Positions 1,742 to 21,901 of a stretch of 24,000 nt of DNA are shown one piece after another. This stretch comes from Dyadobacter chenwenxiniae (GTDB taxonomy: Bacteria; Bacteroidota; Bacteroidia; Cytophagales; Spirosomataceae). The notes under the pieces are model-generated. The model did no database searches. It was given only the letters and a program-made list of their open reading frames with translations, and had not been told where the DNA came from. Position 1 is the stretch's first letter, and each line of letters begins with the position of its first letter. Both the position numbers and the translations under genes were made by a program. The stretch spans positions 4,965,066 to 4,989,065 of the forward strand of contig NZ_CP094997.1 of NCBI RefSeq assembly GCF_022869785.1, in the 5' to 3' direction.

Positions 1742-2020
1742 CTAGGTATTTGCGCCGGTAGTGGGATCAATGATGGTTTTAACTTCCGCAATGGAATTAA
1801 TTGGGAAATTTCCAAGCCGGGCGTGCTCTCGTATCACCTCCTCTGACTCAGCAATGTGGACACAGTAAAGTTTATCATTTGTCACAAATGATTGTATCCA
1901 ATGATAAGGCACACCGAGTTCGCTGACTGTGGCGCACGATAATTGCGAGATAGCCTGCAATTCTTCTCCAGAAAGATTTCCCAAACCAGGAATATCTCGT
2001 TCGATAACAAATTTTTTCAT
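1742..2020 (-). CDS. DUF4242 (SCO4226-like) small protein
   Basis: 92 aa. MKKFVIERDIPGLGNLSGEELQAISQ..YHWIQSFVTNDKLYCVHIAESEEVIREHARLGNFPINSIAEVKTIIDPTTG matches the conserved pattern of the DUF4242 family as I recall it. A TACCTTTG box on the minus strand (2051-2058) lies 31 nt upstream of the ATG. Confidence 0.8.
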   Translation of the reverse strand: MKKFVIERDIPGLGNLSGEELQAISQLSCATVSELGVPYHWIQSFVTNDKLYCVHIAESEEVIREHARLGNFPINSIAEVKTIIDPTTGANT

Positions 2021-2158
2021 GTGATTTTTTATTTGTTTACAATTTGGTCACAAAGGTATCGCGCACTGGTTATATGGATTTTGGTATTATTGCCCATATT
2101 ACTAAGCAAAATTCCCTATTTTAGAATAGCAGGTGCATTTAATTTTCATCGAAACCAT

Positions 2159-3661
2159 CTACTTACTACTATTAGGGATTACAACAGAATGGAATCCATT
2201 TTGCAAGACAAATTCAAATACGGCTCCCTTTCCCGGTTCACTTAAAACCTCAATGGAAGAATGATGTAATTCAAGGATCTTTCGGACGATAGCCAACCCC
2301 AGTCCTATCCCATTCGAGGATGCGATATGCAGGTCGGCCTGTTTGTAGCGTTCGAAGATCTGCTCCTGATATTCCTTGGCTATCCCCACGCCGGTGTCCG
2401 TAACTCTTACCCTAACGCCGTTGCCGAGTTCGAGGAGGCCTACTGATATTTGCCCGCCATCCGGAGTAAATTTGAAAGCATTGTCAAGCAGGTTTTGGAA
2501 AACCCGCTCTGTCAGTGCGATATCCGCGAATACCGTCGGCAGAACGATGGGTGCTTCGAGTGTCAGGCGGATACTGCGTTCCGTGGCTTTCAGCTGGTAG
2601 GCACTGACAATGTCAGAGACCAGCTCGCCTATCGGAAACAGCTCTTTTTGCGGTGTAACGACATTGGCTTCCAGTTTCGAGTATTGGAACAATTGATCCA
2701 CCAACCCGGAAAGCCTTTTAGTGCCCTCGTGGACAATGGATAGATACCGGTCGGTTTCCGCGTGGGACAGGGAATCACCTTTGATCATCAGCGTTTCCAC
2801 ATAACCCTGCATAATCGAAAGCGGCGTCCGCAAGTCATGCGACACATTCGCGATCAGCTCCTGACGGAACCGATCGGCCGCAGTGATCTTTTCGATGTTA
2901 TCGACAATGACATCGGCCATATCATTGAAGGTAGAAGTGAGTACACCCAGATTACCCTTTGCGTAGCCACGTATCCTAGCTGAGTAGTCTCCATCCTTGA
3001 AGGTTTTCACTACGCCCGCAATGCTGCAGATGCTATCAGTGATCAGAAAAAAAGTCACTACCCCCACCACAAACGCCCCTAGCAGGGCCGCAAAAAATAT
3101 GTAAACAGCTAGCCGGAAATAAAGGTCATCATTGAGCGAGCCGAGAATCTCCTTTTGCTTTTCGCTTGCGAGTACCGCATATACATACCCCGCCACCTTC
3201 CCATTTTCAAAAACAGGTGCGACAGAGAAAATGCTTGCTTCGTCGGGATTTTTAGGATTATCTCCCAGCGGCCGCTTGCTTGAATCGGCCGCCAGCCATT
3301 CCCTGACCTTGGCCATGTCGACTTTGTTCATTTGAACGGTAGCTTGGGGTACTACATAATCGGTGATCTTGCCGAGTGTATCGAGCAGGTATACTTCCAC
3401 ACTCGGATTGGCCACCATCGTTGCATGTATGATATCGTGCGTAACCGTCGTATCAGGCTTTCCGTTTTTGATAGGTTGGGTAAAAGAGGCAAGGTGCCCC
3501 GCAATGTCACCATAAAGCTGCTGATGAGCGGCCATGTAATACGATTTGGAAAACCGCGATCCAATTAAGACGAACACCAGGGCAAGCACTAGTAAAAGGC
3601 TCGCAAATACGCCGCTGATCTTCCAGAATAAAAGGTTTCCACGGATGGTTTTTACAGACAT
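2159..3661 (-). CDS. Sensor histidine kinase (two TM helices, roughly 150-aa periplasmic loop, HAMP, HisKA, HATPase_c)
   Basis: H-box NVSHDLRTPLSIMQGY, N-box LLDNAFKFTP, G-boxes DTGVGI and GIGLGLAIV. Hydrophobic segments are ISGVFASLLLVLALVFVLIG and LAVYIFFAALLGAFVVGVVTFFLI. I chose the ATG at 3661 (MSVKTIRG...), which lies 1 nt after the regulator stop. The track start at 3691 would overlap the regulator gene. Confidence 0.9.
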   Translation of the reverse strand: MSVKTIRGNLLFWKISGVFASLLLVLALVFVLIGSRFSKSYYMAAHQQLYGDIAGHLASFTQPIKNGKPDTTVTHDIIHATMVANPSVEVYLLDTLGKITDYVVPQATVQMNKVDMAKVREWLAADSSKRPLGDNPKNPDEASIFSVAPVFENGKVAGYVYAVLASEKQKEILGSLNDDLYFRLAVYIFFAALLGAFVVGVVTFFLITDSICSIAGVVKTFKDGDYSARIRGYAKGNLGVLTSTFNDMADVIVDNIEKITAADRFRQELIANVSHDLRTPLSIMQGYVETLMIKGDSLSHAETDRYLSIVHEGTKRLSGLVDQLFQYSKLEANVVTPQKELFPIGELVSDIVSAYQLKATERSIRLTLEAPIVLPTVFADIALTERVFQNLLDNAFKFTPDGGQISVGLLELGNGVRVRVTDTGVGIAKEYQEQIFERYKQADLHIASSNGIGLGLAIVRKILELHHSSIEVLSEPGKGAVFEFVLQNGFHSVVIPNSSK

Positions 3662-3662
3662 A

Positions 3663-4394
3663 TTACAGGTCTTCATTAAATCGGTAGCCAATGCCCCAGG
3701 TGGTTAATACAAATGACGGATTGGAAACATCCACTTCAATTTTTCCTCTGAGCCGGTTAATATGTGTGTTAACCGTATGCTCATAGCCTTCGAAATCGTA
3801 ACCCCAAACCAGACTCAGCAGCTGTTTGCGGCTATAACTCCTGCCAGGATTGGAAGCCAGCAGGACGATCAGCTCAAATTCACGCGGCGAAAGCTCGATG
3901 CGCTCCCCGAGTAGCATAACTTTACGTTTCTCAATATCGATTTCAAGACCGGCAATGCTGATCTGCGGTGGCCGCGGCGTGCTATACCTGGCCTTTTCTT
4001 CGCTCCGGCGAAAAATGACGCGTACACGTGCAATAAATTCCCTGATGCTGAAGGGTTTGGTAAGGTAATCGTCGGCGCCTGTTTCAAGGCCCATAACCTT
4101 ATCAATTTCTTCTGACCGCGCAGTAAGCATCATTATTGGCGTTTGTCGGTCGTTCTGCCTTACCTTTCTGCACACTTCCATCCCATTCATGCCTGGCAGC
4201 ATTACATCCAGGATAATCAGCTCGAATGCCGAATCCAATGCCCTCTCAAGACCATTCTGCCCATTTTTTTCAGCAACCACCTTACATCCCAGATCAGATA
4301 GATGGATGGTCAGCAGCTCTGTGATATTGCTGTCGTCCTCAATGATCAAAACATTTCTTGTATCCATTTGCCCCCTGATTTTCTGCAAGTTCAT
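3663..4394 (-). CDS. OmpR/PhoB-family response regulator (receiver domain plus winged helix)
   Basis: VLIIEDD, LIILDVMLPGMNG, ADDYLTKPFS and the C-terminal LSPREFELIVLLASNPGRSYSRKQLL..VNTHINRLRGK..TTWGIGYRF. The alternative start M10 (MDTRNVLIIEDD) at 4367 is equally plausible. Confidence 0.9.
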   Translation of the reverse strand: MNLQKIRGQMDTRNVLIIEDDSNITELLTIHLSDLGCKVVAEKNGQNGLERALDSAFELIILDVMLPGMNGMEVCRKVRQNDRQTPIMMLTARSEEIDKVMGLETGADDYLTKPFSIREFIARVRVIFRRSEEKARYSTPRPPQISIAGLEIDIEKRKVMLLGERIELSPREFELIVLLASNPGRSYSRKQLLSLVWGYDFEGYEHTVNTHINRLRGKIEVDVSNPSFVLTTWGIGYRFNEDL

Positions 4395-4422
4395 AAATAA
4401 AACAGCACAAAAACCGGTGTGA

Positions 4423-4430
4423 TACTTTTG
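4423..4430 (+). promoter_or_regulatory. Candidate Bacteroidota -7 promoter box (TAnnTTTG) for the spondin/YHS/DoxX operon
   Basis: TACTTTTG matches TAnnTTTG exactly and lies 76 nt upstream of the ATG at 4506. I saw no convincing -33 TTG element, so this is weak. Confidence 0.25.
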
Positions 4431-4505
4431 TTATAATTCCGTAACGCCGGTGGGATATCGTCTCCGTTGTTTTGCATCATTCCAACACGCAAAACACAAC
4501 CGGAT

Positions 4506-5792
4506 ATGATCAAACCACTGCTTGGGCTATCGCTGACAGCCCTTATTTTCAGTTCTTGTACGAAGGACCACGATCCTCAACCACAGCCGAGGACTATTTC
4601 AATCGAGAATGTCCTTGACAGCAGACCGTTGGTACAGTCGGGAACATTCAAGGGGGCCGGCGCTCCCCCTGTAATCCTGCCCGGGCAATCCATATCTTTC
4701 TCATTTTCGGCATCCAAAAACCAGCGCCTGACCTTCGCCACCATGTACGGGTGGAGCAATGACCTGTTTTTTGCACCAGAAAATCCGGGTATAAGGCTCT
4801 ATGGTGACGACGGAACGCCCATTACAGGAGAAATTTCGTCGAAGATCAAACTATGGGATAACGGGACAAGGGTGAACGGCAAACCAGGAATGGCCCTCGT
4901 GCACCCTGGCACGGCAGAAGCTGCGAAACGAAACATCAAGGAAGTGAATGGCATGGACGACTATGGCCATGCATTTCTGCCCGCATCGCAATTGATGAAG
5001 GTGTCGCTAAATTATGACGGCAGTTCAATGTTCACTGTCACGATCAAAAACCAGTCAGGCGGTACGGCTAACGAAACACCATTCAGTCCAGGCAACTGGG
5101 CGATTTCCTATGTGGCGGGCAACGACCTGCTTTTGCCCGAACCGATCTATTCCAAAGATAAGGCTACAACGGAAGCATTGACACGCATTGCCGAAGCAGG
5201 CGACAATGGACCAATGAGTGCAATGCTGACCGGTCTGACAGGCATATTCACTCCGCTGTCGCCAATCCTTGTGATTGTTTACAACGGTAGTGAAAACCCT
5301 TTTTTCAAGTCCGGGGAAAACGACAGGGGCGAAGGATTGAAGGAATTGGCACAAAAAGGCAATGCCGACATGTTGGCTAAGGCCTTGACGGGTAAGGGTG
5401 GCGTTAAAAATGTTTACGTTCTCAAAGAACCTAACAGCACTGTGTTGTTGCCTAAAATCGGCGGAAATCCCGGCGGCAAAGTTTCCCAGTCACTGTCACT
5501 TATGCCCGGCGACCGCATCGCGATTGCAACCATGTACGGATTTTCGAACGACTGGTTTTTTGCCCCGAAAGGCAATGGTATTGACGGAAGCACCACGGGA
5601 GATGTTTCCAGCTCCATCGGATTATATGATAATGGTACGGCCATTGACCAATTTCCCGGTGCAGGTATTACCCAGTTTAATCTGGCTGGAACGCCGTTGG
5701 CAGAGAGTAAAGCCATTGCTCTGGTCCCCAACCCTAACCAATTCACCACGCTGCCAGCGATCGGCAGCATGATCAAAGTTACGCTGCAATAA
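4506..5792 (+). CDS. Spondin_N-like secreted lipoprotein with internally duplicated modules
   Basis: The ATG at 4506 gives MIKPLLGLSLTALIFSSC, a signal peptide with a lipobox Cys. There are two copies of the ATMYG(W/F)SND(L/W)FFAP...(L)(W/Y)DNGT module and two TP(F/L)SP modules. The segment TPLSPILVIVYNGSENPFFKSGENDRGEGLKELAQKGNADML resembles bacterial spondin-domain proteins. The track start at 4467 is a TTG. Confidence 0.75.
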   Translation: MIKPLLGLSLTALIFSSCTKDHDPQPQPRTISIENVLDSRPLVQSGTFKGAGAPPVILPGQSISFSFSASKNQRLTFATMYGWSNDLFFAPENPGIRLYGDDGTPITGEISSKIKLWDNGTRVNGKPGMALVHPGTAEAAKRNIKEVNGMDDYGHAFLPASQLMKVSLNYDGSSMFTVTIKNQSGGTANETPFSPGNWAISYVAGNDLLLPEPIYSKDKATTEALTRIAEAGDNGPMSAMLTGLTGIFTPLSPILVIVYNGSENPFFKSGENDRGEGLKELAQKGNADMLAKALTGKGGVKNVYVLKEPNSTVLLPKIGGNPGGKVSQSLSLMPGDRIAIATMYGFSNDWFFAPKGNGIDGSTTGDVSSSIGLYDNGTAIDQFPGAGITQFNLAGTPLAESKAIALVPNPNQFTTLPAIGSMIKVTLQ

Positions 5793-5837
5793 CCCACGCC
5801 TCGCTGTGGCAATGCAACGGGTTTTAAATTCAATCTA

Positions 5838-6305
5838 ATGAAAAAGCAAATCAGCATTTTTTTATTGCTCGCGCTCGGTCTTGGACAAGCCTTTGCGCAA
5901 ACGGTCGAGATTCGTAAAAAGCAATTTAACCTGGAAGGTTCCGGGCTGGCGATTCAAGGCTATGATCCGGTTGCATATTTTACGATGAACAAGGCACTTG
6001 AAGGTAAAAAGGAGTTTTCGACCAACTTCAACGGAACTGTCTATCGGTTTATGTCCAAACAGAACCGGGATGAATTTGCGGGTAACCCTGCCCGCTACGA
6101 ACCTCAGTATGGCGGCTGGTGTGCATTTGCAATGGGCAAGAAAGGGGAAAAGGTGGAAGTTGATCCCGAAACTTTCAAAGTCATTGACGGTAAGCTTTAT
6201 CTTTTTTACAATAAGTATTTCAACAACACCCTTAAAAGCTGGAATCAGGACGAAGCCCGTCTAAAAGCGCAGGCGAATAAGAACTGGAGCAAATTTGTAC
6301 CTTAA
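5838..6305 (+). CDS. Secreted YHS-domain protein of the Cys/Sec '(seleno)protein' type, copy 1
   Basis: Signal peptide MKKQISIFLLLALGLGQAFA. Motifs GYDPVAYF, YRFMSKQNRDEF..NP and PQYGGWCAFAM, then DGKLYLFYN. The conserved Cys is encoded by TGT. Confidence 0.8.
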   Translation: MKKQISIFLLLALGLGQAFAQTVEIRKKQFNLEGSGLAIQGYDPVAYFTMNKALEGKKEFSTNFNGTVYRFMSKQNRDEFAGNPARYEPQYGGWCAFAMGKKGEKVEVDPETFKVIDGKLYLFYNKYFNNTLKSWNQDEARLKAQANKNWSKFVP

Positions 6306-6320
6306 AATCCAAAATACATC

Positions 6321-6761
6321 ATGAGAAAAATTATTTTAGCAACGACTTTCATACTAACTGCATTGGGCAGTTATGCTCAAAAATCAGAGATATTCGCACC
6401 CGGTGGCAAAGCCATTAAAGGATATGACGTAGTGGCATTCTTCAAAGATGCCGGACCTGTTGCCGGGGCCGATAGCTTATCCTACCAATACAAAGATGCC
6501 CAGTGGCTATTTGCCAACCGCGCCAACCTGGATGCATTCAAAGCAAATCCCGACATGTATATGCCCCAATACGGCGGCTATTGTGCCTACGGAACATCCC
6601 AAGGTCACAAAGCTCCTACTGAAACGGATACCTGGACCATCGTCAACGATAAATTATACTTCAATTACAACCAGAAAGTGAAGGAAAACTGGTCGAAAAA
6701 GTGGGATGAGCTCATTAGGAAAGCCGATACAGAGTGGCCACTGATCAAAGACAAGCAATAA
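6321..6761 (+). CDS. Secreted YHS-domain protein, copy 2 (diverged tandem paralogue)
   Basis: Signal peptide MRKIILATTFILTALGSYA. Motifs GYDVVAFF, NP and PQYGGYCAYG, then NDKLYFNYN. It starts 15 nt after copy 1. Confidence 0.8.
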   Translation: MRKIILATTFILTALGSYAQKSEIFAPGGKAIKGYDVVAFFKDAGPVAGADSLSYQYKDAQWLFANRANLDAFKANPDMYMPQYGGYCAYGTSQGHKAPTETDTWTIVNDKLYFNYNQKVKENWSKKWDELIRKADTEWPLIKDKQ

Positions 6762-7159
6762 TGAGGCGTAAAACTCAAAAGACCTGGACATGGCTGCTCA
6801 GATTGGCCTCCGCCGGGATCATGCTTCAAACCGTGTTCTTCAAATTTACCGCAGCCCCGGAATCCGTTTACATCTTTTCCAGTCTGGGGATGGAGCCATG
6901 GGGCCGTATACTGGTCGGCGTTTTTGAACTGGTCGCTTCGGTATTGATTCTGGTGCCACGCACCACAGCTTACGGAGCCTTGGTGGGGATCGGCGTAATG
7001 ACCGGCGCGATATTTATGCACCTTACACGTCTGGGTATTGAAGTGCAAGGCGATTCGGGGCAGCTGTTTATTTACGCGGTGCTGGTGATGGGAAGCTGTT
7101 TGATTCTGGCCTATTGGCAACGTAGCAGTTTGTCAGGCATTAGAATGCGTGAACATTAA
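6761..7159 (+). CDS. DoxX-family integral membrane protein
   Basis: MRRKTQKTWTWLLRLASAGIMLQTVFFKFT..GRILVGVFELVASVLILVPRTTAYGALVGIGVMTGAIFMHL is a four-helix DoxX-like pattern. Its ATG overlaps the YHS-2 stop (TAATG at 6759-6763). The track start at 6734 is upstream and lies inside YHS-2. Confidence 0.75.
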   Translation: MRRKTQKTWTWLLRLASAGIMLQTVFFKFTAAPESVYIFSSLGMEPWGRILVGVFELVASVLILVPRTTAYGALVGIGVMTGAIFMHLTRLGIEVQGDSGQLFIYAVLVMGSCLILAYWQRSSLSGIRMREH

Positions 7160-7212
7160 TTGATCAGCCGGTGCCTTGCGAGGTACTGGCTGATTTTGAC
7201 CATACGATTGAT

Positions 7213-7719
7213 ATGAACAGACTAATAACAACATCACTGATTCCACTGCTGGAACAACTCGGCGATGTCCTGAGCAGGCTTAGCGATGTGCAGTATATCA
7301 GCAAAATTCCCGTATTGTCGGAAGCTTCGCTGGGTATGCATGTGCGGCACATCATTGAGTTTTTCCAGGAGCTCGAACAGGGCTATCTTGTCGGCTGTGT
7401 GGATTACGATGCCAGACGCCGGGAAAAGGCTATTGAAAACCACCTGGATTGCGCTATATTAAAACTCCGCCAAATTATCGCGAACCTCAAATATGATAAT
7501 AAAACACTGCTGCTGGCTTATAAACCGAGCAGCGGAACGCCGAATTTTCATGTTCAGACTAGCTACGAGCGCGAGCTGCTGTACAACCTCGAACACACAG
7601 TGCACCATATGGCGATATTGAAGATCGGTATCAGAGCTATATCTACCATTGAGCTGGCTGAGGATTTCGGCGTTGCCAATTCGACAATCCGATACCATCA
7701 GGATAAATGTGTACAGTAA
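7213..7719 (+). CDS. DinB-superfamily (DinB_2-like) protein
   Basis: Helical-bundle His pattern LGMHVRHIIEFFQEL ... NLEHTVHHMAILKIG. ATG at 7213. The track ORF begins at a TTG at 7171. Confidence 0.65.
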   Translation: MNRLITTSLIPLLEQLGDVLSRLSDVQYISKIPVLSEASLGMHVRHIIEFFQELEQGYLVGCVDYDARRREKAIENHLDCAILKLRQIIANLKYDNKTLLLAYKPSSGTPNFHVQTSYERELLYNLEHTVHHMAILKIGIRAISTIELAEDFGVANSTIRYHQDKCVQ

Positions 7720-9494
7720 CCTACATCCCGGCTGAAAACAGCATTTTCCTCACCTCTAACCGGGACGAACGCATTGACCGGGCTCCGGCAGTGCCGCCCG
7801 AGTGCTATTGCGTAAATAAAATTGAAATGATCTACCCCAAAGATGCGCAGGCAGGCGGGACATGGATCGTTCTGAACGGTGACCGTTCGGCAGCAGTGCT
7901 CTTAAACGGCGGTTTTAAAAATCATTCTTACCAGACGCCGTACCGCAAAAGCCGGGGACTCATCATGCTGGATATAATGGGTACAAATTCGCCTGCCGAC
8001 CATTTCCAGGCTATGGACCTTAAAGCCATTGAGCCATTCACCATCATTCTTTTAACCCAAGGAAGACTTCGGCGTTGCACGTGGGACGGGGACCATAAAC
8101 ATCTCACTGAGCTCGACGCGACCAAACCACATATCTGGGCGTCAGTAACATTATATGACCGCGATATGCAATTACAACGTGAAAACGCCCTAATACAGTG
8201 GCTCAAAGAGACCAGGCCGGTAAAACCGGAAGCTGTGGCGGACTTTCACCTAGGCGCCAACATGAGGTATGAGACCAGCAATGCGCCTCATAATGCAAAT
8301 ATCCGGACGGTGAGTGTCACCTTGTTAGCGCTTTCGACTGACAGGCGGGCTAGCGTGCTTTATCATGATCTGCACTCGGGCGAAGTCGCTGCCAAACGCA
8401 TGCAAACACAGGCTCCTGGCACGCCATTATTGTTTAACAGTTTTTATTGGAAAACCCGGAGATTTTGGATCCGTCTCAGACATTGGGAATACTGGCCATT
8501 CGCATGCTTGTATCTTCCCCTGGTCCCGCTGTGGTTATGGCTCAGCTTGCGGGCCCGGTCATTGTTGTTTTTCAGTGCGGCAAATCCCGGGATAGCATAC
8601 TCCGGTTTTATCCAGGAACGCAAAAGCGATATTTACCCATTATTGCCGGAAGGGTTATATCCAAAAGGCGTACTTTGCAAAACCGGAATGTCGGCTGGGG
8701 AGATCAATTCGGTGCTCCGCGAGTCCTCTCTTGATTTCCCTTTGATTGCCAAACCCGATATCGGCGAGCGCGGCATTCAAGTTGAACTTTTACGTAAGCC
8801 GGCTGACTTGGACACCTATCGATCTCGCACCAAGGTCGACTTTCTATTACAGGAGTATATCGACTATTCCCATGAGATCGGCATTTTTTATTACCGTATT
8901 CCAGGAAATAAAAACGGGCAACTATCAGGTATTGTCGGGAAAGAGTTTTTAAGCGTGACCGGAGATGGACAGACCAGTCTGCTGTCTCTACTGATGCAAA
9001 ATGACCGAGCTGTTTTGCAGCTGCACGCATTGGCCGCTGTCTTTGGCGATCAATTTGATAACATTCCTGACTCAGGGGAGATACTTACCCTGGTACCGTA
9101 CGGCAATCATATCCGTGGATCCAGGTTCATTGACCTGCATAGCCGCATAACACCTGGCCTAACAGATATGATCGATAAGGTATGCACACAGGTGCCCGGC
9201 TTTTATTTCGGCAGACTGGATATCCGCTTTAAAAATTGGGAAGAACTCGAAGCCGGAAGACATTTTTCGATCATCGAATTGAATGGTACAGGCAGCGAAC
9301 CCACACACATTTACGACCCCGCCCACTCGTTGTTTTTCGCATGGAAGGAGATTTACCGACATTGGAAAATCGTTTTCAAGATCAGCATGATCAATGCTCA
9401 TAATGGCAAACAGCCTTTGATGAGCCTGAAAGAAGGTTTGGAAATGAAAAGGGCGCACGACAAGCATTTAAATCTAATGCAAGCCCAACATTAA
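7707..9494 (+). CDS. Fusion protein: NRDE/TANGO2-family domain with N-terminal Cys, a hydrophobic segment, and an ATP-grasp ligase domain
   Basis: The N-terminus is MCTVTYIPAENSIFLTSNRDE, with Cys2 and the literal NRDE motif. GGTWIVLN, AAVLLNG, KSRGLI and EPFTIILL are collinear with TANGO2/NRDE proteins. Residues 263-281 (WPFACLYLPLVPLWLWLSL) are hydrophobic. The C-terminal half has ATP-grasp hallmarks: FPLIAKPDIGERGIQVELL, LLQEYIDYSHEIGIFYY and FSIIELNGTGSEPTHIYDP. The ATG overlaps the DinB gene by 13 nt. Confidence 0.75.
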   Translation: MCTVTYIPAENSIFLTSNRDERIDRAPAVPPECYCVNKIEMIYPKDAQAGGTWIVLNGDRSAAVLLNGGFKNHSYQTPYRKSRGLIMLDIMGTNSPADHFQAMDLKAIEPFTIILLTQGRLRRCTWDGDHKHLTELDATKPHIWASVTLYDRDMQLQRENALIQWLKETRPVKPEAVADFHLGANMRYETSNAPHNANIRTVSVTLLALSTDRRASVLYHDLHSGEVAAKRMQTQAPGTPLLFNSFYWKTRRFWIRLRHWEYWPFACLYLPLVPLWLWLSLRARSLLFFSAANPGIAYSGFIQERKSDIYPLLPEGLYPKGVLCKTGMSAGEINSVLRESSLDFPLIAKPDIGERGIQVELLRKPADLDTYRSRTKVDFLLQEYIDYSHEIGIFYYRIPGNKNGQLSGIVGKEFLSVTGDGQTSLLSLLMQNDRAVLQLHALAAVFGDQFDNIPDSGEILTLVPYGNHIRGSRFIDLHSRITPGLTDMIDKVCTQVPGFYFGRLDIRFKNWEELEAGRHFSIIELNGTGSEPTHIYDPAHSLFFAWKEIYRHWKIVFKISMINAHNGKQPLMSLKEGLEMKRAHDKHLNLMQAQH

Positions 9495-9761
9495 CTACGT
9501 TTTCAAAAGGAAGCCGTGCCCTGGGTACCGATTTTTCAATTAAGAAATCAGATTCGCAAAGAAGGTTAAGTTTGCGCCGGTGAACTCCTAATCGAAAGGG
9601 CTGCCTGTTTTGTGCGCGAAAGTAATTTTTCCGTCATTCACTCAGAGCCTTCGCAACAACAATAACATAACGCACAATAATATACGTAACTGATGTGTTT
9701 CAAAAATTTGGTAACCCCGAAGGGCAACACATAACTGTTAATCTCTTATAAGAACTTGCTT

Positions 9762-10373
9762 TCAGGGATTGATTTTTGAGAATATATACACAGCCGTGTA
9801 AGGAACGTCGACGGTTTCCAGCGCATTGCCTGGCGGGACAGCAGGTGCCCTCCCTCCTTTCGTTGCAATGCGCTGAATATAATCGGTATCTTCAAATCTG
9901 CCATTGGGTATTGTTCCTGTCTTTGGCATTAAGAGCAGCCAATCGATGTGCTGCGGATCTACGCTAGCAGTTTTCGCCGGAGAAAACTGCTGGCCTACGA
10001 TCAACGAATTCGTCGCATCAACCGTCCAGGATGGCCCGCCAAAATGCCGTCCCACTTTCGCATTTGAAACAGCGAATAAATCAGCTTCTGGCTCAATAAA
10101 TACCCATTCATATGCTGTCGGATAGCTATTCTGTCGTTCCTGAGCCTTGTATTTTTGCACGCCTTCTGCAAAATAAACTGCCACTGGACTGTTTCCACTA
10201 GGATTAGCGGGCAATGCTACCGCCGCAGGGATAGGCAATGCCAGAGCCTGGGAAATTTTAAAAGCTGGCGATGACGTGTCCGGATCAACATGGTCGGTAC
10301 ATGCGGTCAGAAAGACTGCGGCGAATACAGCCATTCTCACCTGAGCTGTGAACGAATGAAATATTTTGAACAT
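9762..10373 (-). CDS. DUF3455-like secreted lipoprotein
   Basis: Signal peptide and lipobox MAVFAAVFLTAC. GRHFGGPSWTVDATNSLIVG..IDWLLL..TDYIQRIATKGGRAPA..VDVPYTAVYIFS follows the DUF3455 pattern as I recall it. Confidence 0.7.
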   Translation of the reverse strand: MFKIFHSFTAQVRMAVFAAVFLTACTDHVDPDTSSPAFKISQALALPIPAAVALPANPSGNSPVAVYFAEGVQKYKAQERQNSYPTAYEWVFIEPEADLFAVSNAKVGRHFGGPSWTVDATNSLIVGQQFSPAKTASVDPQHIDWLLLMPKTGTIPNGRFEDTDYIQRIATKGGRAPAVPPGNALETVDVPYTAVYIFSKINP

Positions 10374-10401
10374 TGTAATCAGTGTTTACACCATGAATGG
10401 A

Positions 10402-10932
10402 TCACGGTAATTTAGTATTGTGAGGAGCGAATATGCCGTGCGTATTATCCAGTTCAACCCAGGCATGCAACGTCCACAAATTAAATTCTGTGTTGATCTC
10501 CCATTCATCGTCCTTACCCGTAAAACCTTCGGGGACAGCAGGCGGATTTTTTATGTCCTTGATAGGCGTGGCGTACTCGACTGCTACCAGTTTCATTGTA
10601 TCCTTACCATAAGGCGCATACAAGAGTATTTCGGGCTTTCCTATTTCGAATTTATTGTCTAGCAGATCTGTATTCAGGTAATGAAAACCCATTTGCGTCC
10701 GGTAACCCGTTACTTCCTGATCGTAACCTTCTGCAATAGCTTTGTTCAGATCCCGGAAAGGAATAACGGCCTGCCGGACCTGATTTAGTTCCTGCTCCAC
10801 CACTGGGTCGTGATCCTTCCGCTGCTCTTCGGTGCAGGATGTGAAGAAAATACTTATGGCACCGACGAAAAGGTAGGTAGGAAAGTTTTTGACCAAAGTC
10901 AGGTATGCATTAAAGTTTAATGTTGTTTTCAT
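10402..10932 (-). CDS. Hypothetical lipoprotein (no family recognised)
   Basis: 176 aa with signal peptide YLFVGAISIFFTSC followed by the acidic TEEQ. The conserved-looking core is AIAEGYDQEVTGYRTQMGFHYLNTDLLD..KPEILLYAP..KLVAVEYATP..LWTLHAWV. It sits in the same tight cluster as its neighbours. Confidence 0.6.
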   Translation of the reverse strand: MKTTLNFNAYLTLVKNFPTYLFVGAISIFFTSCTEEQRKDHDPVVEQELNQVRQAVIPFRDLNKAIAEGYDQEVTGYRTQMGFHYLNTDLLDNKFEIGKPEILLYAPYGKDTMKLVAVEYATPIKDIKNPPAVPEGFTGKDDEWEINTEFNLWTLHAWVELDNTHGIFAPHNTKLP

Positions 10933-10983
10933 TTTAATAATTATCAGTAGATGAATTTTTCTGAAATGATTTGCCCCTGTTGA

Positions 10984-12456
10984 CTATAAATTCTGGTACC
11001 AGATTTCGCCCAAGCTATTCACTGCCCATGGTGTTCCGAGGTGGTTAACAGCCAGGGTAACCGCAGTTCCCGGCATGAGGCTCCAATCCACCCCGTTCCA
11101 CCGAGATAAGGTATAACCTCCGTAAACAGGGGTGCGGCCCGTAATGTAAACTGAGCCTTCGGGCCCGGCGAAAATATCAGTAGCTAAGCCAGGAACCTCT
11201 GACCAGTGTGCGCCGCTACCGCCCAGGAAGAAAATTTTACCCGTATTGTCGACTATCCATGGCATACCCTGCGCTCCTGCTGCAATACGCACTGCTCCGC
11301 CGGGCAATTGGGTCCAGTTGCTACCATTCCACTTGTATATGCAATTACCTCCCGTAGCTGCGGCCCCGCCGATCATATACACCGAACCATCGCCCGCCGC
11401 CGCAATGTCTTTGGCAGACCCCGGCATTCGATCCCATAAACGTGTATTGTAATTATAACGGTAAATTCCACCTACAGAGTTAATAATCCAGGGTACATCG
11501 CCTGCCCCCGCCGTAATCTTTCTCGCCGATCCGGGCAACTTGAACCATTGATTGAATGAGCCGAGTTGATAGATACCAAAATCAGCGCCTATGGGATCTT
11601 TACCAATGGCAAACACCGACCCCAGCGGCCCTACCGCAATATCAGTGGCAGAGCCGGCCATCTGGATCCATTCTCCATTGGGATACATTGCCTGGACAGC
11701 CTTCTTGTCCCCAAAAGTGAAACCCGTCCAGTTGCTTACTACGGAGTTCATGACTGAATGAAGGTCAGAATTTGGTGTACCGGGAATTGGCTTCTCAATG
11801 ATGCCGTCCTGATGCAGGTCAGTATGCGCAATACCCAGCGTATGTCCCAGCTCGTGGGCCATCGTAGTCAATTTTTGTTCCGTGGGAATGTAGCTATACT
11901 TCAAATTGATGATAATGCTTGAACCAGGCTTTCCTTCAAGGTAAGGAAACTGAGCGACGGCTATTTTATCACTTGTAGCATCAATTCTGGCCACGATTTC
12001 CATGTCCGCCCAACGGAGCTCACTCACCTCCGAAAATTTGACTTTGACACCTTTCAGGAGATTCCATTGCGCTAAAGCAGTTCTTGTGACCGCAACCCAT
12101 TCTGGTGGAGTACCTGGACGCATATAAATTTTGATATTCCGCACCCAGGTATCGGACACGAGCCAACGTCTGCGACGATGTGCGCTGGCCAGATTTACGT
12201 TATCCTTGTATTGCTTCTCAGCCTCCGTTTTAGATATTAAAATATCACCTTCAATGACAAACGTGGTATCCCTTGAATTATAAACGACTGCTTTTTCCGA
12301 TGTACCCATCGCCTCGGTAAGAAAACCTTTTAACACTTCAATGGATATCGAATCACGGATTTCCTTGGGAACGACTGTTTCAACTGGAACAGCGTCCTGG
12401 TGACAGGCATACATACATAGGGTAGCGAAGATTACTAGCAGGACATTTTTTTTCAT
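10984..12456 (-). CDS. Metzincin metalloprotease (M57 'HEIGH'-like) fused to a six-blade tectonin/tachylectin-like beta-propeller
   Basis: Signal peptide MKKNVLLVIFATLCMYAC. Zinc site MAHELGHTLGIAHTD (HExxHxxGxxH) with a downstream SVMNS Met-turn candidate. Six W-x-x-(M/L/V)-(P/A)-G-x-A-x-x-I-x-x-G repeats begin at W263, W304, W341, W381, W418 and W458. Confidence 0.8.
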   Translation of the reverse strand: MKKNVLLVIFATLCMYACHQDAVPVETVVPKEIRDSISIEVLKGFLTEAMGTSEKAVVYNSRDTTFVIEGDILISKTEAEKQYKDNVNLASAHRRRRWLVSDTWVRNIKIYMRPGTPPEWVAVTRTALAQWNLLKGVKVKFSEVSELRWADMEIVARIDATSDKIAVAQFPYLEGKPGSSIIINLKYSYIPTEQKLTTMAHELGHTLGIAHTDLHQDGIIEKPIPGTPNSDLHSVMNSVVSNWTGFTFGDKKAVQAMYPNGEWIQMAGSATDIAVGPLGSVFAIGKDPIGADFGIYQLGSFNQWFKLPGSARKITAGAGDVPWIINSVGGIYRYNYNTRLWDRMPGSAKDIAAAGDGSVYMIGGAAATGGNCIYKWNGSNWTQLPGGAVRIAAGAQGMPWIVDNTGKIFFLGGSGAHWSEVPGLATDIFAGPEGSVYITGRTPVYGGYTLSRWNGVDWSLMPGTAVTLAVNHLGTPWAVNSLGEIWYQNL

Positions 12457-12543
12457 AGCATTTGAATTTGGTTTGAGAGATTAGTTAAAAGAGTATGACA
12501 ATCTGATCCCATAAAAAGGATAAGTGTAAAAAAGTTGAGTATG

Positions 12544-13590
12544 TTATCGATGAATTTTTCGGATGCGTGAGTTTCTGACGTCTGCTACGAAAATATTCCC
12601 GGCAGCATCCATGGCAATTCCGCTGGGCTGATTGAATTTGGCCTCGTCGGCAGCGCCATCTGCAAAGCCGACCGTGCCATTACCTGCGATGGTGCTCACT
12701 ATACCTTCCGGGGTAACTTTTCGAATGGCGGAATTCAAATCCCCTATATATAAATTTCCGTCTTTGTCTATGGCAATTCCTTCCGGGTTATGAAACCGCA
12801 CTTCGCCACCCTTTCCATCGATATATCCGATTTCCGACGTGCTGCCAGCAAGCACACTGACTGCTCCCTCAGGAGTAACTTTCCGTATCACAAACCCGCC
12901 AGTGTCAGCCACATACAGGTTTCCTACTTTATCTATTTCAATACCTTCCGGGAATCCAAAACCAGTAGCAAATGTGCTGACGGTCCCATCCTGGGTTACT
13001 TTTCGAATGCAATGGTTGGCGCCGTCGCTCACATACAAATTTCCTTGCGGATCGAGCACTAAGTCAGCCGGAAAATTAAACTGTGCTGCCTTGCCTACAC
13101 CGTTTTTAAATCCGATAACACCGTTGCCTGCAATGGTACTGACGACTCCGTCACGACTGATTTTACGGATCAAACTATTACCAGAGTCCGCCACAAAAAC
13201 ATTTCCGTTGCCATCAACCACTAATCCATGCGGATAGCTGAATAACGCTTCGGAAACTGACCCGTCATTACTTCCGAAAATGCTGTCCCCTGCAACAGTT
13301 GTGACAATGCCATGAGGTGTGATCTTCCTGATCCGATTGTTATTTCCATCGGCCACGTAAACATTCCCGGCGGCGTCTGTGGTTAAACCATAGGCATCTG
13401 AAAAAGCAGCATCCTTCCCGTCTCCGTCAGCAAAGCCATAGATTCCGCTACCAGCGAGGGTGCTCACTGTGTATGGCCTTAAAACCTCGTCAGCGGGTGG
13501 CGGTTCCACATTTTCAACAATACTACTGCATGATCCTGCAATTAATAAAGCCATCGTTAAAAGCAAGTTGGATATAAATGTCGTGTGCAT
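12544..13590 (-). CDS. NHL-repeat beta-propeller lipoprotein (six repeats)
   Basis: Six repeats of the form G(L/I)xxDxxGN(V/L/I)(Y/F)(V/I)(A/S/G)DxxNxxIRK(I/V)(T/S)xxGxVST(I/V)AG. The ATG at 13590 gives MHTTFISNLLLTMALLIAGSC and lies 2 nt after the upstream gene's stop. The track start at 13614 overlaps that gene. Confidence 0.85.
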   Translation of the reverse strand: MHTTFISNLLLTMALLIAGSCSSIVENVEPPPADEVLRPYTVSTLAGSGIYGFADGDGKDAAFSDAYGLTTDAAGNVYVADGNNNRIRKITPHGIVTTVAGDSIFGSNDGSVSEALFSYPHGLVVDGNGNVFVADSGNSLIRKISRDGVVSTIAGNGVIGFKNGVGKAAQFNFPADLVLDPQGNLYVSDGANHCIRKVTQDGTVSTFATGFGFPEGIEIDKVGNLYVADTGGFVIRKVTPEGAVSVLAGSTSEIGYIDGKGGEVRFHNPEGIAIDKDGNLYIGDLNSAIRKVTPEGIVSTIAGNGTVGFADGAADEAKFNQPSGIAMDAAGNIFVADVRNSRIRKIHR

Positions 13591-13592
13591 AG

Positions 13593-14822
13593 TTACCAGT
13601 AGCTTAACCACCATTTGGTAGATTGATTGGCTCTCTTATATTGATCGAACTTCTTGCAAATCGGATACAGTATCAAAACCACCGCTATCCAAATGATGTA
13701 TACGATTGGCAAATTGAAACCATAACCCTTCAAAGCAATTGCGTTGTTAACGCTGGTCGTTAATATCATATCCGCCCATTCATAACCGGATAGCACTGCC
13801 GCACCCATTGCCATCATGTGAATCAAATACAAGTGGGCTAGGTAGTAGAACATGGGTACCCGTCCGAACACACTTACCACCGATGACCATTTACCAGAAG
13901 GTTTTTCAATCAATGCAAGAAAAGTAAGTGCCGGCCCAAGCGTCATGAGTGCATAAAGCAGCGACGGCGGATACTTGCTGACATTTAAAAAAGAAAGCAA
14001 ACTGAGTAGGCCGGATTTTTGTAATGACCAATGCGCGGCGTCACCATACCAGTTATTACATCTTAAAATAACAAACAGCACCATGGCCCCAAGCCCCACG
14101 TAGATGAATGTGGCCCTCCTTTTCGCGGAATGATAATTAGATAGGTATAAATTGCCCACGGCATAGCCCGTTGCCATAATACCAAGCCAGGGTAGCAATG
14201 CATATCGGACTGAAAAGGAGAAGTTTCCAAAAGTGAAGTAACCCGGCTCGTGGATCAATGCCCATAAAAACGATCCAAAACCACCACCGGGAACATTCAC
14301 ATTATCCAGCAAATTGTGACCCGCAATTAGTAAGATGCCCACTACGGAAATGACTTTTTTATTCAGATAAATAATGGCTGACATAAAAACCATACTCACC
14401 CCCGTTACCCAGATTACTGCCAGATTGAAATAAGGATACGAAGGATTGAATGTCCATTCAAATGTCACAATAAAGCATTCAGCCAGAATGAGCCATATGC
14501 CTCTTATCAGCAGGAAAAAAGATAATTGTTTTCGGCTTCGCTTTGCGCCATACAGACAAGCTGAAATACCTGCAAGGAAAATAAATATAGGCGCACAGAA
14601 ATGTGTAATTAATCTAGTGAAGAAAAGAGCAACATTGGTTTGCGTCAAATCTGTGGGACTGTAAAAGAAAGCATCAACATGGAAGTAATCCCGCACATGA
14701 TCCAGCGCCATTACTATCATTACTATACCTCTTAACAAGTCGATAGCGTAAATCCTTTTGCTTTTTAATGCAAGGGGCTCTTGATTATTAATTGGATATG
14801 CTGATTTACTAATTGTTGACAT
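13593..14822 (-). CDS. DUF1624 / heparan-alpha-glucosaminide N-acetyltransferase-like polytopic membrane protein
   Basis: RIYAIDLLRGIVMIVMALDHVRDYF is the signature N-terminal helix, followed by roughly ten hydrophobic segments. The track start at 14840 is a TTG. The first ATG (MSTISKSAY) is at 14822. Confidence 0.8.
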   Translation of the reverse strand: MSTISKSAYPINNQEPLALKSKRIYAIDLLRGIVMIVMALDHVRDYFHVDAFFYSPTDLTQTNVALFFTRLITHFCAPIFIFLAGISACLYGAKRSRKQLSFFLLIRGIWLILAECFIVTFEWTFNPSYPYFNLAVIWVTGVSMVFMSAIIYLNKKVISVVGILLIAGHNLLDNVNVPGGGFGSFLWALIHEPGYFTFGNFSFSVRYALLPWLGIMATGYAVGNLYLSNYHSAKRRATFIYVGLGAMVLFVILRCNNWYGDAAHWSLQKSGLLSLLSFLNVSKYPPSLLYALMTLGPALTFLALIEKPSGKWSSVVSVFGRVPMFYYLAHLYLIHMMAMGAAVLSGYEWADMILTTSVNNAIALKGYGFNLPIVYIIWIAVVLILYPICKKFDQYKRANQSTKWWLSYW

Positions 14823-14997
14823 AAATTGAGTGTGTTCCAATGAATCGATCTATATGAATATTCCGGTCGGCTAATGAAGATTTAAATGCTGATGAATGTG
14901 CTGATTAAAGCAGAAAAACTTGTTGATGCAAAACAAGTGCAGAATCTTGTTACCGATATAAGAGGTATTCCCTATTTTGCAATATTTGCCACTCCTA

Positions 14998-15024
14998 TAT
15001 TACAATTCAAGCAACTATTACAAT
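14998..15024. repeat. Perfect 9-bp direct repeat TATTACAAT x2 in the divergent promoter region
   Basis: TATTACAAT occurs at 14998-15006 and 15016-15024 (18-nt period), about 65-90 nt upstream of the LuxR-type regulator ATG. It may be an operator. Confidence 0.3.
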
Positions 15025-15089
15025 AATTGCTACGTATCCACTCAAACGTGTAAACAAGAGGCTTACACTCCTACTTTAATCAATTAGCC

Positions 15090-17687: not shown

Positions 17688-17829
17688 GGAGTATTGTCGC
17701 ATAATATGGGGATCATCACCATAGTCGGGCTAGTCAACTGCATGTAGCTTTGTCCTGGTAGTTCGTCAACCCGGCTTGCGTTTGGAAGACGGTCTTCTTC
17801 ATCAAAATTTTAGATTTGTTATAAGCAGA

Positions 17830-17865
17830 TCCGGCACAGAAGTTTTCCGTGCCGGACTTTTATCG
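17830..17865 (+). terminator. Intrinsic terminator-like hairpin
   Basis: TCCGGCAC (17830-17837) and GTGCCGGA (17849-17856) form an 8-bp GC-rich stem with an 11-nt loop, followed by CTTTTAT. It lies 143 nt downstream of the LuxR-type gene stop. Confidence 0.5.
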
Positions 17866-17969
17866 TAAATCGTAATTCTACGAGAAACATCAGCAAGTTG
17901 CCACAATCGGAATTATCTGAAGACATCGCTATCCGAATATTCAGTTTATAATCTATTGCAACTTTTATT

Positions 17970-18012
17970 GCAACAAAAACAAAAAAGACTTAGCAAATTT
18001 TGCTAAGTCTTT
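17970..18012 (-). terminator. Intrinsic terminator of tRNA-Arg
   Basis: AAAGACTTAGCA (17984-17995) and TGCTAAGTCTTT (18001-18012) form a 12-bp perfect stem with a 5-nt loop. It lies just 3' of the tRNA on the minus strand and is followed there by TTTTTTGTTTTTGTTG. Confidence 0.6.
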
Positions 18013-18022
18013 GATTTTCAAG

Positions 18023-18096
18023 TGGTCACGTAGGGATTCGAACCCCAAACCTCCTGATCCGTAGTCAGGTGCTCTATCCAATTGAGCTACGCAACC
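18023..18096 (-). tRNA. tRNA-Arg (anticodon ACG)
   Basis: The reverse complement is GGTTGCGTAGCTCAATTGGATAGAGCACCTGACTACGGATCAGGAGGTTTGGGGTTCGAATCCCTACGTGACCA. It folds as a 74-nt cloverleaf: acceptor GGTTGCG/CGTGACC, D arm GCTC/GAGC, anticodon stem CCTGA/TCAGG with loop CTACGGA, and T arm TGGGG-TTCGAAT-CCCTA. The discriminator is A and no CCA is encoded. Confidence 0.9.
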
Positions 18097-18146
18097 TTTT
18101 TCCCTTTCTTTTGCGGCTGCAAATGCCTAACCGTTTCTGAATTGGA

Positions 18147-18177
18147 CTGCAAAGATAGGAAAAGCGCGTCTTTGCAG
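18147..18177 (-). terminator. Hairpin between the enoyl-CoA hydratase gene and the tRNA (possible terminator)
   Basis: CTGCAAAGA (18147-18155) and TCTTTGCAG (18169-18177) form a 9-bp perfect stem with a 13-nt loop, 45 nt after the stop at 18222. No clear T-run follows. Confidence 0.3.
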
Positions 18178-18221
18178 CAAATGGTTAAAGTGAAAAAACT
18201 TGAAAAAGTTTAACTTTAATG

Positions 18222-19001: not shown

Positions 19002-19020
19002 TGCCGTGAAGTGTTTTTTG

Positions 19021-19659: not shown

Positions 19660-19780
19660 GGGAGAATGTCTTTAATCGGATATTGATTGACAAAATTACG
19701 CTGAAAACCAGTCTGCACAAGAGTCAGTTCCCATAGAAAAGTAAGTTAGGCGCACGGAATAGGTTTTCGTAGGGTAATTT

Positions 19781-19788
19781 GTAATTTT
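19781..19788 (+). promoter_or_regulatory. Candidate -7 promoter box (TAnnTTTG) for asnS
   Basis: TAATTTTG lies 64 nt upstream of the asnS ATG. I found no clear -33 element. Confidence 0.25.
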
Positions 19789-19851
19789 GCGCCTCATTCG
19801 GAAAGCCGGATTCACAAGCATTCAGTACATTAAGATTGAAACCAAAAGAAA

Positions 19852-21288: not shown

Positions 21289-21307
21289 CAATATTTTGAA
21301 GTTTTTT

Positions 21308-21327
21308 GGTAACCCTGTTACCTTTTT
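21308..21327 (+). terminator. Intrinsic terminator after asnS
   Basis: GGTAAC (21308-21313), loop CCT, GTTACC (21317-21322), then TTTTT. It lies 20 nt after the asnS stop. Confidence 0.45.
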
Positions 21328-21329
21328 AA

Positions 21330-21739: not shown

Positions 21740-21828
21740 GACTGAAACCAAACAATCTTTGTGCTTGCGCGCGGAGCAACAACGACCATTTTATGAAGAT
21801 CAGATAGCTATCTAATTACAGTGGGAGA

Positions 21829-21875: not shown

Positions 21876-21901
21876 GTTCGAGGATAGCTTACTGTTTAAG
21901 A

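Follow-up and report, generated by a model that had tools for sequence, protein, structure and literature searches.

Within a 24,000-nucleotide stretch of the Dyadobacter chenwenxiniae genome (contig NZ_CP094997.1, positions 4,965,066 to 4,989,065; hereafter the window), a two-component system (TCS) is divergently arranged with six closely spaced genes for secreted, membrane and cytoplasmic proteins. On the minus strand lie an OmpR/PhoB-type response regulator (RR; 3663-4394; Pfam Response_reg and Trans_reg_C), a sensor histidine kinase (HK; 2159-3661, with its ATG at 3661; Pfam HisKA and HATPase_c) separated from it by 1 nt and, 3' of the kinase gene, a small DUF4242/SCO4226-like protein of 92 aa (1742-2020; PF14026 'Nickel responsive protein SCO4226-like', E 3.6e-20). 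On the plus strand, beyond a divergent intergenic region of 111 nt (4395-4505), follow a spondin-domain lipoprotein with a lipobox ending in IFSSC (4506-5792), two secreted paralogues of the YHS (seleno)protein family, YHS1 (5838-6305) and YHS2 (6321-6761), a DoxX-family inner-membrane protein (6761-7159), a cytoplasmic DinB-like protein (7213-7719) and a fusion of an NRDE domain with an ATP-grasp domain (7707-9494). The spacers between the plus-strand genes are 45, 15, -1, 53 and -13 nt, the stop of YHS2 and the start of DoxX sharing 1 nt. Our open reading frame (ORF) map thus reproduced the nine ORFs, coordinates and spacers of an earlier reading made from the DNA letters without database searches (the sequence-only reading), and its family assignments hold, with the DinB-like call requiring a structure model. 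Here we show that YHS, DoxX, DinB-like, NRDE and ATP-grasp form a genuine conserved gene cluster of Bacteroidota, to which the spondin gene and the TCS are lineage-specific additions in Dyadobacter, Chitinophaga and a few other loci.

To characterize the conservation of this arrangement, we scanned one genome per species, which gave at least 586 loci encoding a relative of the fusion, and analysed the best 80 (identifiers with the prefix L below are locus numbers). These carry Bacteroidota names from four orders, except for two metagenome-assembled genome (MAG) records titled Brevundimonas and Chitinophaga pinensis. Loci were compared by tblastn and all-against-all clustering of their ORFs. 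Counts anchored on the fusion refer to 59 genome loci with at least 5 kb of upstream and at least 2.5 kb of downstream sequence, and counts anchored on YHS1 refer to 32 loci from a metagenome scan, each with at least 4.5 kb downstream. Around the fusion, a DinB-like gene was found in 58 of the 59 loci, DoxX in 51 and YHS in 46-47, and a LysE-type exporter lay directly 3' on the same strand in 32; DinB-like, DoxX and LysE always share the strand of the fusion, and YHS does so in 42-43 of its loci. The view from YHS1 was similar, with DoxX in 27 of the 32 loci, NRDE/ATP-grasp in 26, DinB-like in 25, a Crp-type regulator in 23 and LysE in 17. The core, in the order YHS (one or two copies), DoxX, DinB-like, NRDE and ATP-grasp, is kept in Cytophagales, Chitinophagales, Sphingobacteriales and Flavobacteriales, and the gene order persists under at least three regulator types and with differing inserted genes. 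Very probably, the core constitutes one functional system.

The remaining genes of the locus are variable. The sequence-only reading had treated all six plus-strand genes as one operon under the adjacent kinase and had named conservation across Bacteroidota as a check of that view; the core withstood this check from either anchor, but the six genes are not a fixed operon. The spondin gene is present in only 3/59 loci and an orthologous TCS in only 3-4/59, other loci having a Crp-type regulator (21) or an extracytoplasmic function (ECF) sigma factor (18, with an anti-sigma gene in 17) instead. DUF4242, which that reading listed with the TCS on the minus strand, is syntenic in no related locus: tblastn matched it nowhere else, neither in the three further Dyadobacter loci whose flanks are long enough nor beside the orthologous TCS in L001-L003. 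We rejected it as a system member, and it probably lies outside the conserved system.

The spondin-domain protein scores 209 bits against NF038123 (cut-off 40) over three stretches and has no Pfam match, including to Spondin_N. Its gene is internally deleted in L003, a Dyadobacter MAG, where the ORF at 8094-8402 lacks residues ~65-375, and in L085 a different lipoprotein takes its place. In Chitinophaga arvensicola (L004:5339-5593), the match to the regulator gene is confined to its C-terminal third. Together, the spondin loss in L003 and the regulator remnant in L004 suggest decay of the lineage-specific parts.

The secreted and membrane members of the core are well supported by profile matches. 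The model NF041384, 'YHS domain-containing (seleno)protein' (cut-off 70), matches YHS1 at 141.6 bits and YHS2 at 145.4 bits, and the two proteins share 32% identity; YHS1, which carries a signal peptide, is 100% identical to a D. chenwenxiniae protein. Across 74 homologues, the family has a single invariant cysteine, Cys95 in the GGWC motif of YHS1, and no invariant His or Met. The YHS selenoprotein family is defined by the motif GxU (PMC13188914), and the Cys residues of the window motifs GGWC and GGYC (the latter in YHS2) coincide with the selenocysteine (Sec) position of its selenoprotein members (PMC13188914; PMC1976440), which bears out the redox-type Cys/Sec position assigned from sequence. 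Tandem double-YHS proteins of ~270 aa also occur (P0244, P0248 and P0257-P0259, one annotated as Cyclobacteriaceae), carrying two paralogues in one chain. Sequence searches of the PDB with YHS1 and with the spondin-domain protein returned nothing significant. The DoxX protein passes the cut-offs of both PF07681 (32.7 bits vs 23.6) and PF13564 (32.9 vs 26.3), and its hydropathy profile contains 3-4 hydrophobic segments.

The cytoplasmic DinB-like protein of the window matches no Pfam or NCBIfam model. DinB_2 is matched weakly by 23 of its 36 orthologues (best E 1.2e-4), and homologues are publicly annotated as 'DinB family', some with a precomputed PF12867 match. An AlphaFold (AF2) model built on 62 homologues reached a mean confidence (pLDDT) of 93.5, and in a Foldseek search its 13 best PDB matches were all DinB/YfiT proteins (2f22, 3gor, 3dka, 2qe9, 6iz2 and others), with TM scores of 0.42-0.67 and modest E values of 1e-3 to 0.3, in keeping with the four-helix bundle of the DinB fold; mycothiol S-transferase (MST; 8f5v) is among the structural neighbours of the model. 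Nine residues are invariant, namely H43, R45, H46, E49, R120, E121, H128, H131 and H132, of which H43/H46 and H128-x3-H132 would fit a DinB-type metal-binding His site. Membership of the BstA/MST family was not supported, PF04978 (MST) being matched by 2/36 orthologues with a best E of 0.044. In L085, the interval between DoxX and LysE contains a short ORF (5114-5428) in which 'GEHIRHI' survives as a DinB-like remnant, and NRDE and ATP-grasp are absent; this locus resembles a deletion of the cytoplasmic unit in which LysE and MsrB were retained.

The stop of the DinB-like gene and the start of the NRDE gene overlap by 13 nt (7707-7719, ATGTGTACAGTAA). The overlap measures exactly 13 nt in 61 of 69 loci, a constancy that argues for translational coupling of the two genes. 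The DinB-like protein also has a conserved C[AV]Q C-terminus, which we considered as a LysW-type or S6-type ligation tail and set aside: because the overlapping NRDE start ATG-TGY-ACN-GTN (M-C-T-V codons) forces the codons of the C-[A/V]-Q-stop end, its conservation needs no separate function.

The fusion protein shares 98% identity with its counterpart in Dyadobacter sp. CY107/D. fanqingshengii and was modelled with a pLDDT of 89.8. Its N-terminal domain (aa 1-~240; 7707-8430) matches the TANGO2/NRDE family PF05742 at 38.0 bits (cut-off 22.6, aa 10-119), and Foldseek placed the model beside human TANGO2 (8sv7 and 9bwa; TMt 0.61-0.63, E 1e-8) and isopenicillin-N acyltransferase, a Cys N-terminal nucleophile (Ntn) enzyme, with the four-layer alpha-beta-beta-alpha Ntn fold evident in the model. 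Among 60 homologues, C2, R19, D20 and E21 are invariant and N18 is at least 90% conserved; C2 and N18-R19-D20-E21 correspond to C2 and N25-R26-D27-E28 of human TANGO2. The 2026 crystal-structure paper on human TANGO2 proposed a Cys-Ntn hydrolase with catalytic Cys2, N25, D27 and N157, and the amide hydrolase activity is unproven even for the human protein (PMC13044924). The NRDE domain resembles this family in fold and in putative active-site residues and is predicted to be a TANGO2-like Cys-Ntn hydrolase.

The C-terminal domain (aa ~244-595; 8436-9494) resembles carboxylate-amine ligases of the ATP-grasp superfamily. Its best Foldseek matches were CphA1/2, GshF, Ddl and ArgX (E 2.5e-9 to 1e-6), and profile searches matched CphA2 (7ta5, E 1.8e-6; 8fxh) and GshAB (3ln6), with a vtGDGxSTI insert in common. 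The N-terminal part of the domain is a helical segment rich in Trp, and its motifs are IAKPDxGxRG, QEYI and RLD…IELN; K349, D505, E524 and N526 are invariant and, by motif resemblance, are putative ATP/Mg residues. It does not reach RimK membership (PF08443 17.4 bits vs 21; TIGR00768 17.2 vs 143), and 12 of 24 orthologues match RimK weakly. A transmembrane helix between the two domains (WEYWP…WLWLS) was rejected, no 19-aa window exceeding 1.5 on the Kyte-Doolittle scale; the segment is modelled at high confidence within the N-subdomain of the ligase, and a peripheral membrane contact is possible.

The two domains are joined in the window, as the sequence-only reading had described, but in ~60 of the 80 loci (within L012-L080) NRDE and ATP-grasp are separate adjacent genes, mostly with a gap of 0-18 nt. 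The fused form occurs in 17/80 loci (L001-L011, L017, L020, L026 and L028-L030), from Dyadobacter, Chitinophaga, Puia, Pedobacter, Mucilaginibacter, Daejeonella and Agriterribacter, and is confined to some lineages of Cytophagales, Chitinophagales and Sphingobacteriales. NRDE-ATP-grasp is thus a fusion of the Rosetta-stone type. In L015 a second ATP-grasp paralogue (7210-8250; 34% identity to the window domain) stands upstream of DoxX, beside the usual one.

The TCS has the composition of the OmpR/PhoB family, with a receiver and winged-helix Trans_reg_C in the regulator and a HisKA/HATPase_c kinase whose transmembrane segments (aa 8-41 and 179-219, by hydropathy) flank a periplasmic loop of ~140 aa. 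HK orthologues in L001-L004 are 67-80% identical, and related TCS genes (RR 49-56% identity) adjoin the cluster in other arrangements in L017 and L055. A heavy-metal TCS identity was rejected, since both proteins fail the curated cut-offs (HK vs TIGR01386, 129 bits vs 292.6; RR vs TIGR01387, 192 vs 279.2); WalK, PhoR and MtrA match the TCS better, and the RR reaches no NCBIfam equivalog cut-off.

Multi-locus comparison of the divergent intergenic region revealed a conserved block (4418-4474, plus strand) with three heptamers of the form TG(T/G)(G/T)ATA: TGTGATA at 4418-4424, TGTTATA at 4429-4435 and TGGGATA at 4451-4457. Their spacing of 11 and 22 bp places three in-phase copies on one helix face, a phasing typical of OmpR/PhoB operators. 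A perfect TAnnTTTG, the Bacteroidota -7 motif (TACTTTTG, 4423-4430), lies inside the first heptamer pair, and an TTGTTTTG box (4467-4474; TAGTTTTG in L085) stands 9 nt past the third heptamer; a direct repeat, CCGGTGTGATA and CCGGTGGGATA, is spaced by 33 nt. G-TGTGATACTTTTGTTA, GGGATA and TTTG are invariant in all seven TCS-bearing loci examined (the window, L001-L004, L081 and L085), which span Dyadobacter, Chitinophaga and two metagenome contigs. The 18-mer of the block occurs once in the window, with 0.02 chance matches expected. A strict degenerate pattern of the heptamer pair hit 5 of 160 fetched loci, all with a window-type TCS; L085, a sixth TCS-bearing locus, has a two-mismatch version that this pattern missed. 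Since L085 keeps the block although its first downstream gene encodes a different lipoprotein, the block travels with the TCS, not with spondin. We therefore regard 4418-4474 as a candidate RR operator with a Bacteroidota-type promoter, and control of the plus-strand genes by the adjacent kinase and regulator, as the sequence-only reading proposed, is plausible. The operon leader also contains a perfect 8-nt inverted repeat (TGTTTTGC at 4468-4475 and GCAAAACA at 4489-4496), partly conserved in related loci but not conserved in L001, L003 or L004, and was set aside. An Rfam scan of the whole window gave a tRNA (18023-18096, minus strand) as its sole match, so the leader contains no riboswitch known to that database.

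The genes that recur around the core add a functional context. Among the 59 fusion-anchored loci, the accessory genes placed inside the cluster or next to it comprise AhpC/TSA with a signal peptide (8), MsrB (5), DUF1223 (3), DM13 (19), YceI (11) and CoaB-like PF04127 (5), and two families of outer-membrane barrels, beta-rich with a signal peptide and a C-terminal Phe, occur in 9 loci each. The anti-sigma proteins that accompany the ECF sigma factors are ~91 aa long, have no obvious hydrophobic segment in the sequences inspected and carry C…HxxxCxxC, the pattern of redox-sensing zinc-containing anti-sigma (ZAS) proteins such as RsrA, the motif alone being no proof of redox sensing. Stand-alone CoaB-like genes lie between YHS2 and DoxX in L008 (8367-9050) and four other Mucilaginibacter/Pedobacter loci; as members of the phosphopantothenate-cysteine ligase family, these insertions hint at cysteine ligation chemistry. 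A predicted outer-membrane beta-barrel family of ~309 aa has an invariant QGCSDAGxC directly after its signal peptide (L004:7146-8075, L017:4057-4983, L018:7221-8117 and seven more loci); it matches no Pfam or NCBIfam model and is usually paired with a DM13-domain protein.

Over the 112 loci analysed, the recurrent neighbour clusters that were annotated contain no family of metal transporters or metal chaperones: P-type ATPases, RND/Cus systems, multicopper oxidases and CopZ-like proteins are all missing from them. The annotated recurrent clusters also lack SseA rhodanese, SodA and DoxA, as well as hemoproteins, among them cytochrome c, and Ccm and heme-biosynthesis families. Neither precursor peptides nor tailoring genes were seen among the annotated neighbours.

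Beyond the cluster, the window looks unrelated to it. From 9762 to 24000 it encodes a DUF3455 protein, an M57 peptidase with a tectonin domain (10984-12456), an NHL propeller, an HGSNAT-like acyltransferase, a LuxR-type STAND ATPase (15090-17687), an enoyl-CoA hydratase, a class II aminoacyl-tRNA synthetase (19852-21288) and a protein with a type IX secretion system tail. On the other side, a GNAT acetyltransferase lies at 1094-1657, beyond DUF4242; the metagenome locus L088 also has a GNAT gene just 5' of YHS1, probably by coincidence.

Several known systems resemble parts of this cluster. The mycothiol/bacillithiol route comprises the DinB-fold S-transferases MST and BstA, the conjugate amidases Mca and Bca, and mercapturate export, and the cluster similarly pairs a DinB-fold protein with a predicted amide hydrolase and, in most lineages, an exporter. 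Unlike in that route, the predicted amidase is of the TANGO2-type Cys-Ntn class instead of an LmbE-type zinc amidase and has an ATP-grasp ligase obligatorily attached, and the DinB-like protein matches no MST or BstA model; a thiol or S-transferase role is hypothetical. In the likeness of the sigmaR regulon, part of the loci are under a redox-type ZAS anti-sigma/ECF sigma pair. In glutathionylspermidine synthetase/amidase (GspSA), a single chain carries an amidase with a Cys nucleophile in its N-terminal part and an ATP-dependent carboxylate-amine ligase in its C-terminal part; such a pair can make and break one amide bond, with a balance that might shift when the amidase Cys is oxidized. The fusion shares this architecture only, its Ntn/TANGO2 fold contrasting with the CHAP fold of GspSA without sequence relationship. 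The N-domain itself is a member of the human TANGO2/bacterial HtpA family (PF05742), but its contexts, fused to or adjoining an ATP-grasp ligase and overlapping a DinB-fold gene, were not found for that family in the literature searched. Searches by structure and by profile both match the ligase domain best to the CphA G-domain and the C-terminal ATP-grasp domain of GshF, with which it has the Mg/ATP motifs and a vtGDGxSTI lid insert in common; it differs from them in its low identity (~13-19%), the absence of CphA M and N domains and of a gamma-glutamylcysteine ligase domain, and the Trp-rich helical N-subdomain.

As for the membrane protein, M. tuberculosis DoxX-SseA-SodA, Acidianus DoxDA and B. 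subtilis MhqP/CatD also place DoxX in a redox, thiol or quinone stress context; unlike those systems, the neighbourhood has no SseA, SodA, DoxA or dioxygenase partner, and the partners are single-Cys YHS proteins. The candidate operator recalls PhoB/OmpR sites in having TGTGATA-N4-TGTTATA and a third copy 22 bp on, beside an OmpR-family regulator gene. The pho box consists of 7-bp direct repeats with 11-bp phasing; the heptamers here differ in sequence, and the block includes a TAnnTTTG promoter motif. Overall, we rate the cluster as a putative stress-inducible redox or detoxification operon with parts from known families. Full-text literature searches for the gene combination found no relevant paper; as far as the searched literature goes, neither the combination nor the TANGO2-ATP-grasp link nor the overlap of DinB and NRDE seems to have been described.

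The cluster divides into a secreted and membrane part, made of YHS and DoxX and often DM13, YceI, outer-membrane barrels, AhpC/TSA or MsrB, and a cytoplasmic part, made of the DinB-like protein, NRDE, ATP-grasp and often LysE. The explanation we favour, while giving it slightly less than an even chance, is that these parts form a two-compartment envelope redox/thiol stress module under kinase control. We lean modestly towards redox and thiol chemistry over metal as its theme, because the accessory genes belong to families classically associated with oxidative damage or thiol redox and because the regulator in about one third of the loci is an RsrA-like sigma/anti-sigma pair; the redox half of the metal/redox theme in the sequence-only reading is accordingly reinforced by AhpC/TSA, MsrB, DUF1223, DM13, YceI and the ECF sigma factor with its C…HxxxCxxC anti-sigma, and the metal half is at best weakly supported. 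In a metal (Cu/Ni) module, YHS would capture copper in the periplasm, Ni or Zn would be bound by DUF4242 and the His triad of the DinB fold, and the kinase would be the metal sensor. Pfam does tie YHS to copper-ATPase domains and DUF4242 to nickel response, the DinB fold is established as binding metal through His, and HK and RR align over their full length to TIGR01386 and TIGR01387. Against these ties, the TCS falls far under the heavy-metal cut-offs and scores better with WalK, PhoR and MtrA, no metal transporter family recurs among the annotated neighbour clusters of the 112 loci, YHS offers one invariant Cys and no invariant His or Met, and DUF4242 is syntenic nowhere else, which makes a metal module improbable. 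We consider it very improbable that the cluster delivers heme or another cofactor, with NRDE/TANGO2 acting in HtpA-like heme trafficking for DM13, YceI and the barrels in the envelope. A later study reportedly challenges the heme-trafficking role of TANGO2, no hemoprotein or heme-biosynthesis family is among the annotated recurrent neighbours, and the invariant Cys2/NRDE set with its obligatory ATP-grasp pairing or fusion points to amide-bond chemistry, even though DM13 domains and lipid-binding YceI proteins do recur. The Shewanella TANGO2 homologue HtpA binds heme and raises cytochrome c content (PMC10470608), whereas heme binding by TANGO2 has been reported as nonspecific (PMC13044924).

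The strongest rival is that the locus holds two independent neighbouring units, in which DinB-like, NRDE, ATP-grasp and LysE would synthesize and export a peptide-like metabolite (for example a storage, signalling or antioxidant dipeptide) and YHS-DoxX would be a separate unit next door. The ATP-grasp domain is nearest to cyanophycin synthetase and GshF peptide ligases, the LysE gene sits directly 3' in more than half of the fusion-anchored loci, extra genes are inserted exactly at the DoxX/DinB junction, and each half can be found alone. Yet the halves are co-located on the same strand in 46-51/59 and 26/32 loci, in four orders and under several regulators, which is hard to explain otherwise than by shared function, and the annotated neighbour clusters include no precursor peptide or tailoring genes; we hold separate units to be unlikely. 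That unrelated genes came to lie beside a TCS by accident, the outcome that would have undone the sequence-only reading, is scarcely credible: spondin, TCS and DUF4242 do vary between loci, but for the core genes an accident is contradicted by the order conserved from both anchors and by the conserved 13-nt overlap.

Within the favoured envelope redox/thiol module, the kinase would sense an envelope signal, and the phosphorylated regulator would bind the heptamers and activate the plus-strand operon. On the periplasmic side, the redox-active residue would be the Cys of YHS, which is Sec in other phyla, and DoxX would connect it with the membrane through exchange of quinones or thiols. On the cytoplasmic side, the product of the ATP-grasp ligase would be a small metabolite with an amide linkage, perhaps a thiol; the same kind of amide bond, in the metabolite or its conjugates, would be cleaved by the NRDE Cys-Ntn hydrolase; the DinB-fold protein might act on the metabolite through a His-bound metal, for example by thiol transfer, and LysE, where present, would export the product or a conjugate. 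We propose amide making and breaking because a Cys-nucleophile amidase is joined to a carboxylate-amine ligase, as in GspSA, and thiol conjugates because a DinB-like protein that occurs with an amidase and an exporter is reminiscent of how S-conjugates of mycothiol and bacillithiol are handled. That this specific cycle of ligase, amidase and transferase is correct in its detail seems doubtful.

Several observations weigh against the favoured explanation. The loci are mutually related, so they cannot be counted as independent events. In ~8/59 loci the trio of DinB-like, NRDE and ATP-grasp genes stands without YHS or DoxX, and in ~5/32 YHS-DoxX stands without the trio, each half being found alone in a minority of loci, and therefore the halves can work apart. 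The YHS domain is classically linked to copper. The involvement of a thiol is hypothetical, and CoaB-like genes occur in only 5/59 loci. A single mRNA for the plus-strand genes would follow from the spacers alone; a candidate intrinsic terminator 3' of the fusion (9516-9528) folds no better than shuffled sequence (z = -0.58) and was discarded, and the 3' limit of the operon is implied only by a convergent gene at 9762-10373. Because a perfect TAnnTTTG lies inside the heptamer pair, the conserved block may be a promoter and not an operator. Finally, bacterial TANGO2 homologues are represented by a single experimental study, and the activity it reports is binding of heme and not hydrolysis (PMC10470608).

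The cluster links four poorly understood families (selenoprotein-type YHS, DoxX, DinB and TANGO2/NRDE), and one solved function would annotate thousands of genes; the intergenic block in turn defines a candidate operator for an orphan envelope-sensing TCS. Heme trafficking, acyl-CoA binding and Ntn hydrolysis are competing proposals for what human TANGO2 does at the molecular level, and the pairing or fusion of its bacterial relative with an ATP-grasp ligase, together with the DinB overlap, provides a guilt-by-association clue to this human disease protein. It is conceivable, if rather unlikely, that DinB-like, TANGO2-like and ATP-grasp proteins, with LysE in part of the loci, form a new Bacteroidota pathway that makes, uses and recycles a small metabolite with an amide linkage, which might be a hitherto undescribed low-molecular-weight thiol or conjugates of it and would supply or buffer YHS-DoxX, and that TANGO2-family proteins are amidases acting on bonds made by ATP-grasp ligases. 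If this is true, the conserved adjacency or fusion with ATP-grasp would offer biochemistry a way into the dispute over what human TANGO2 does.

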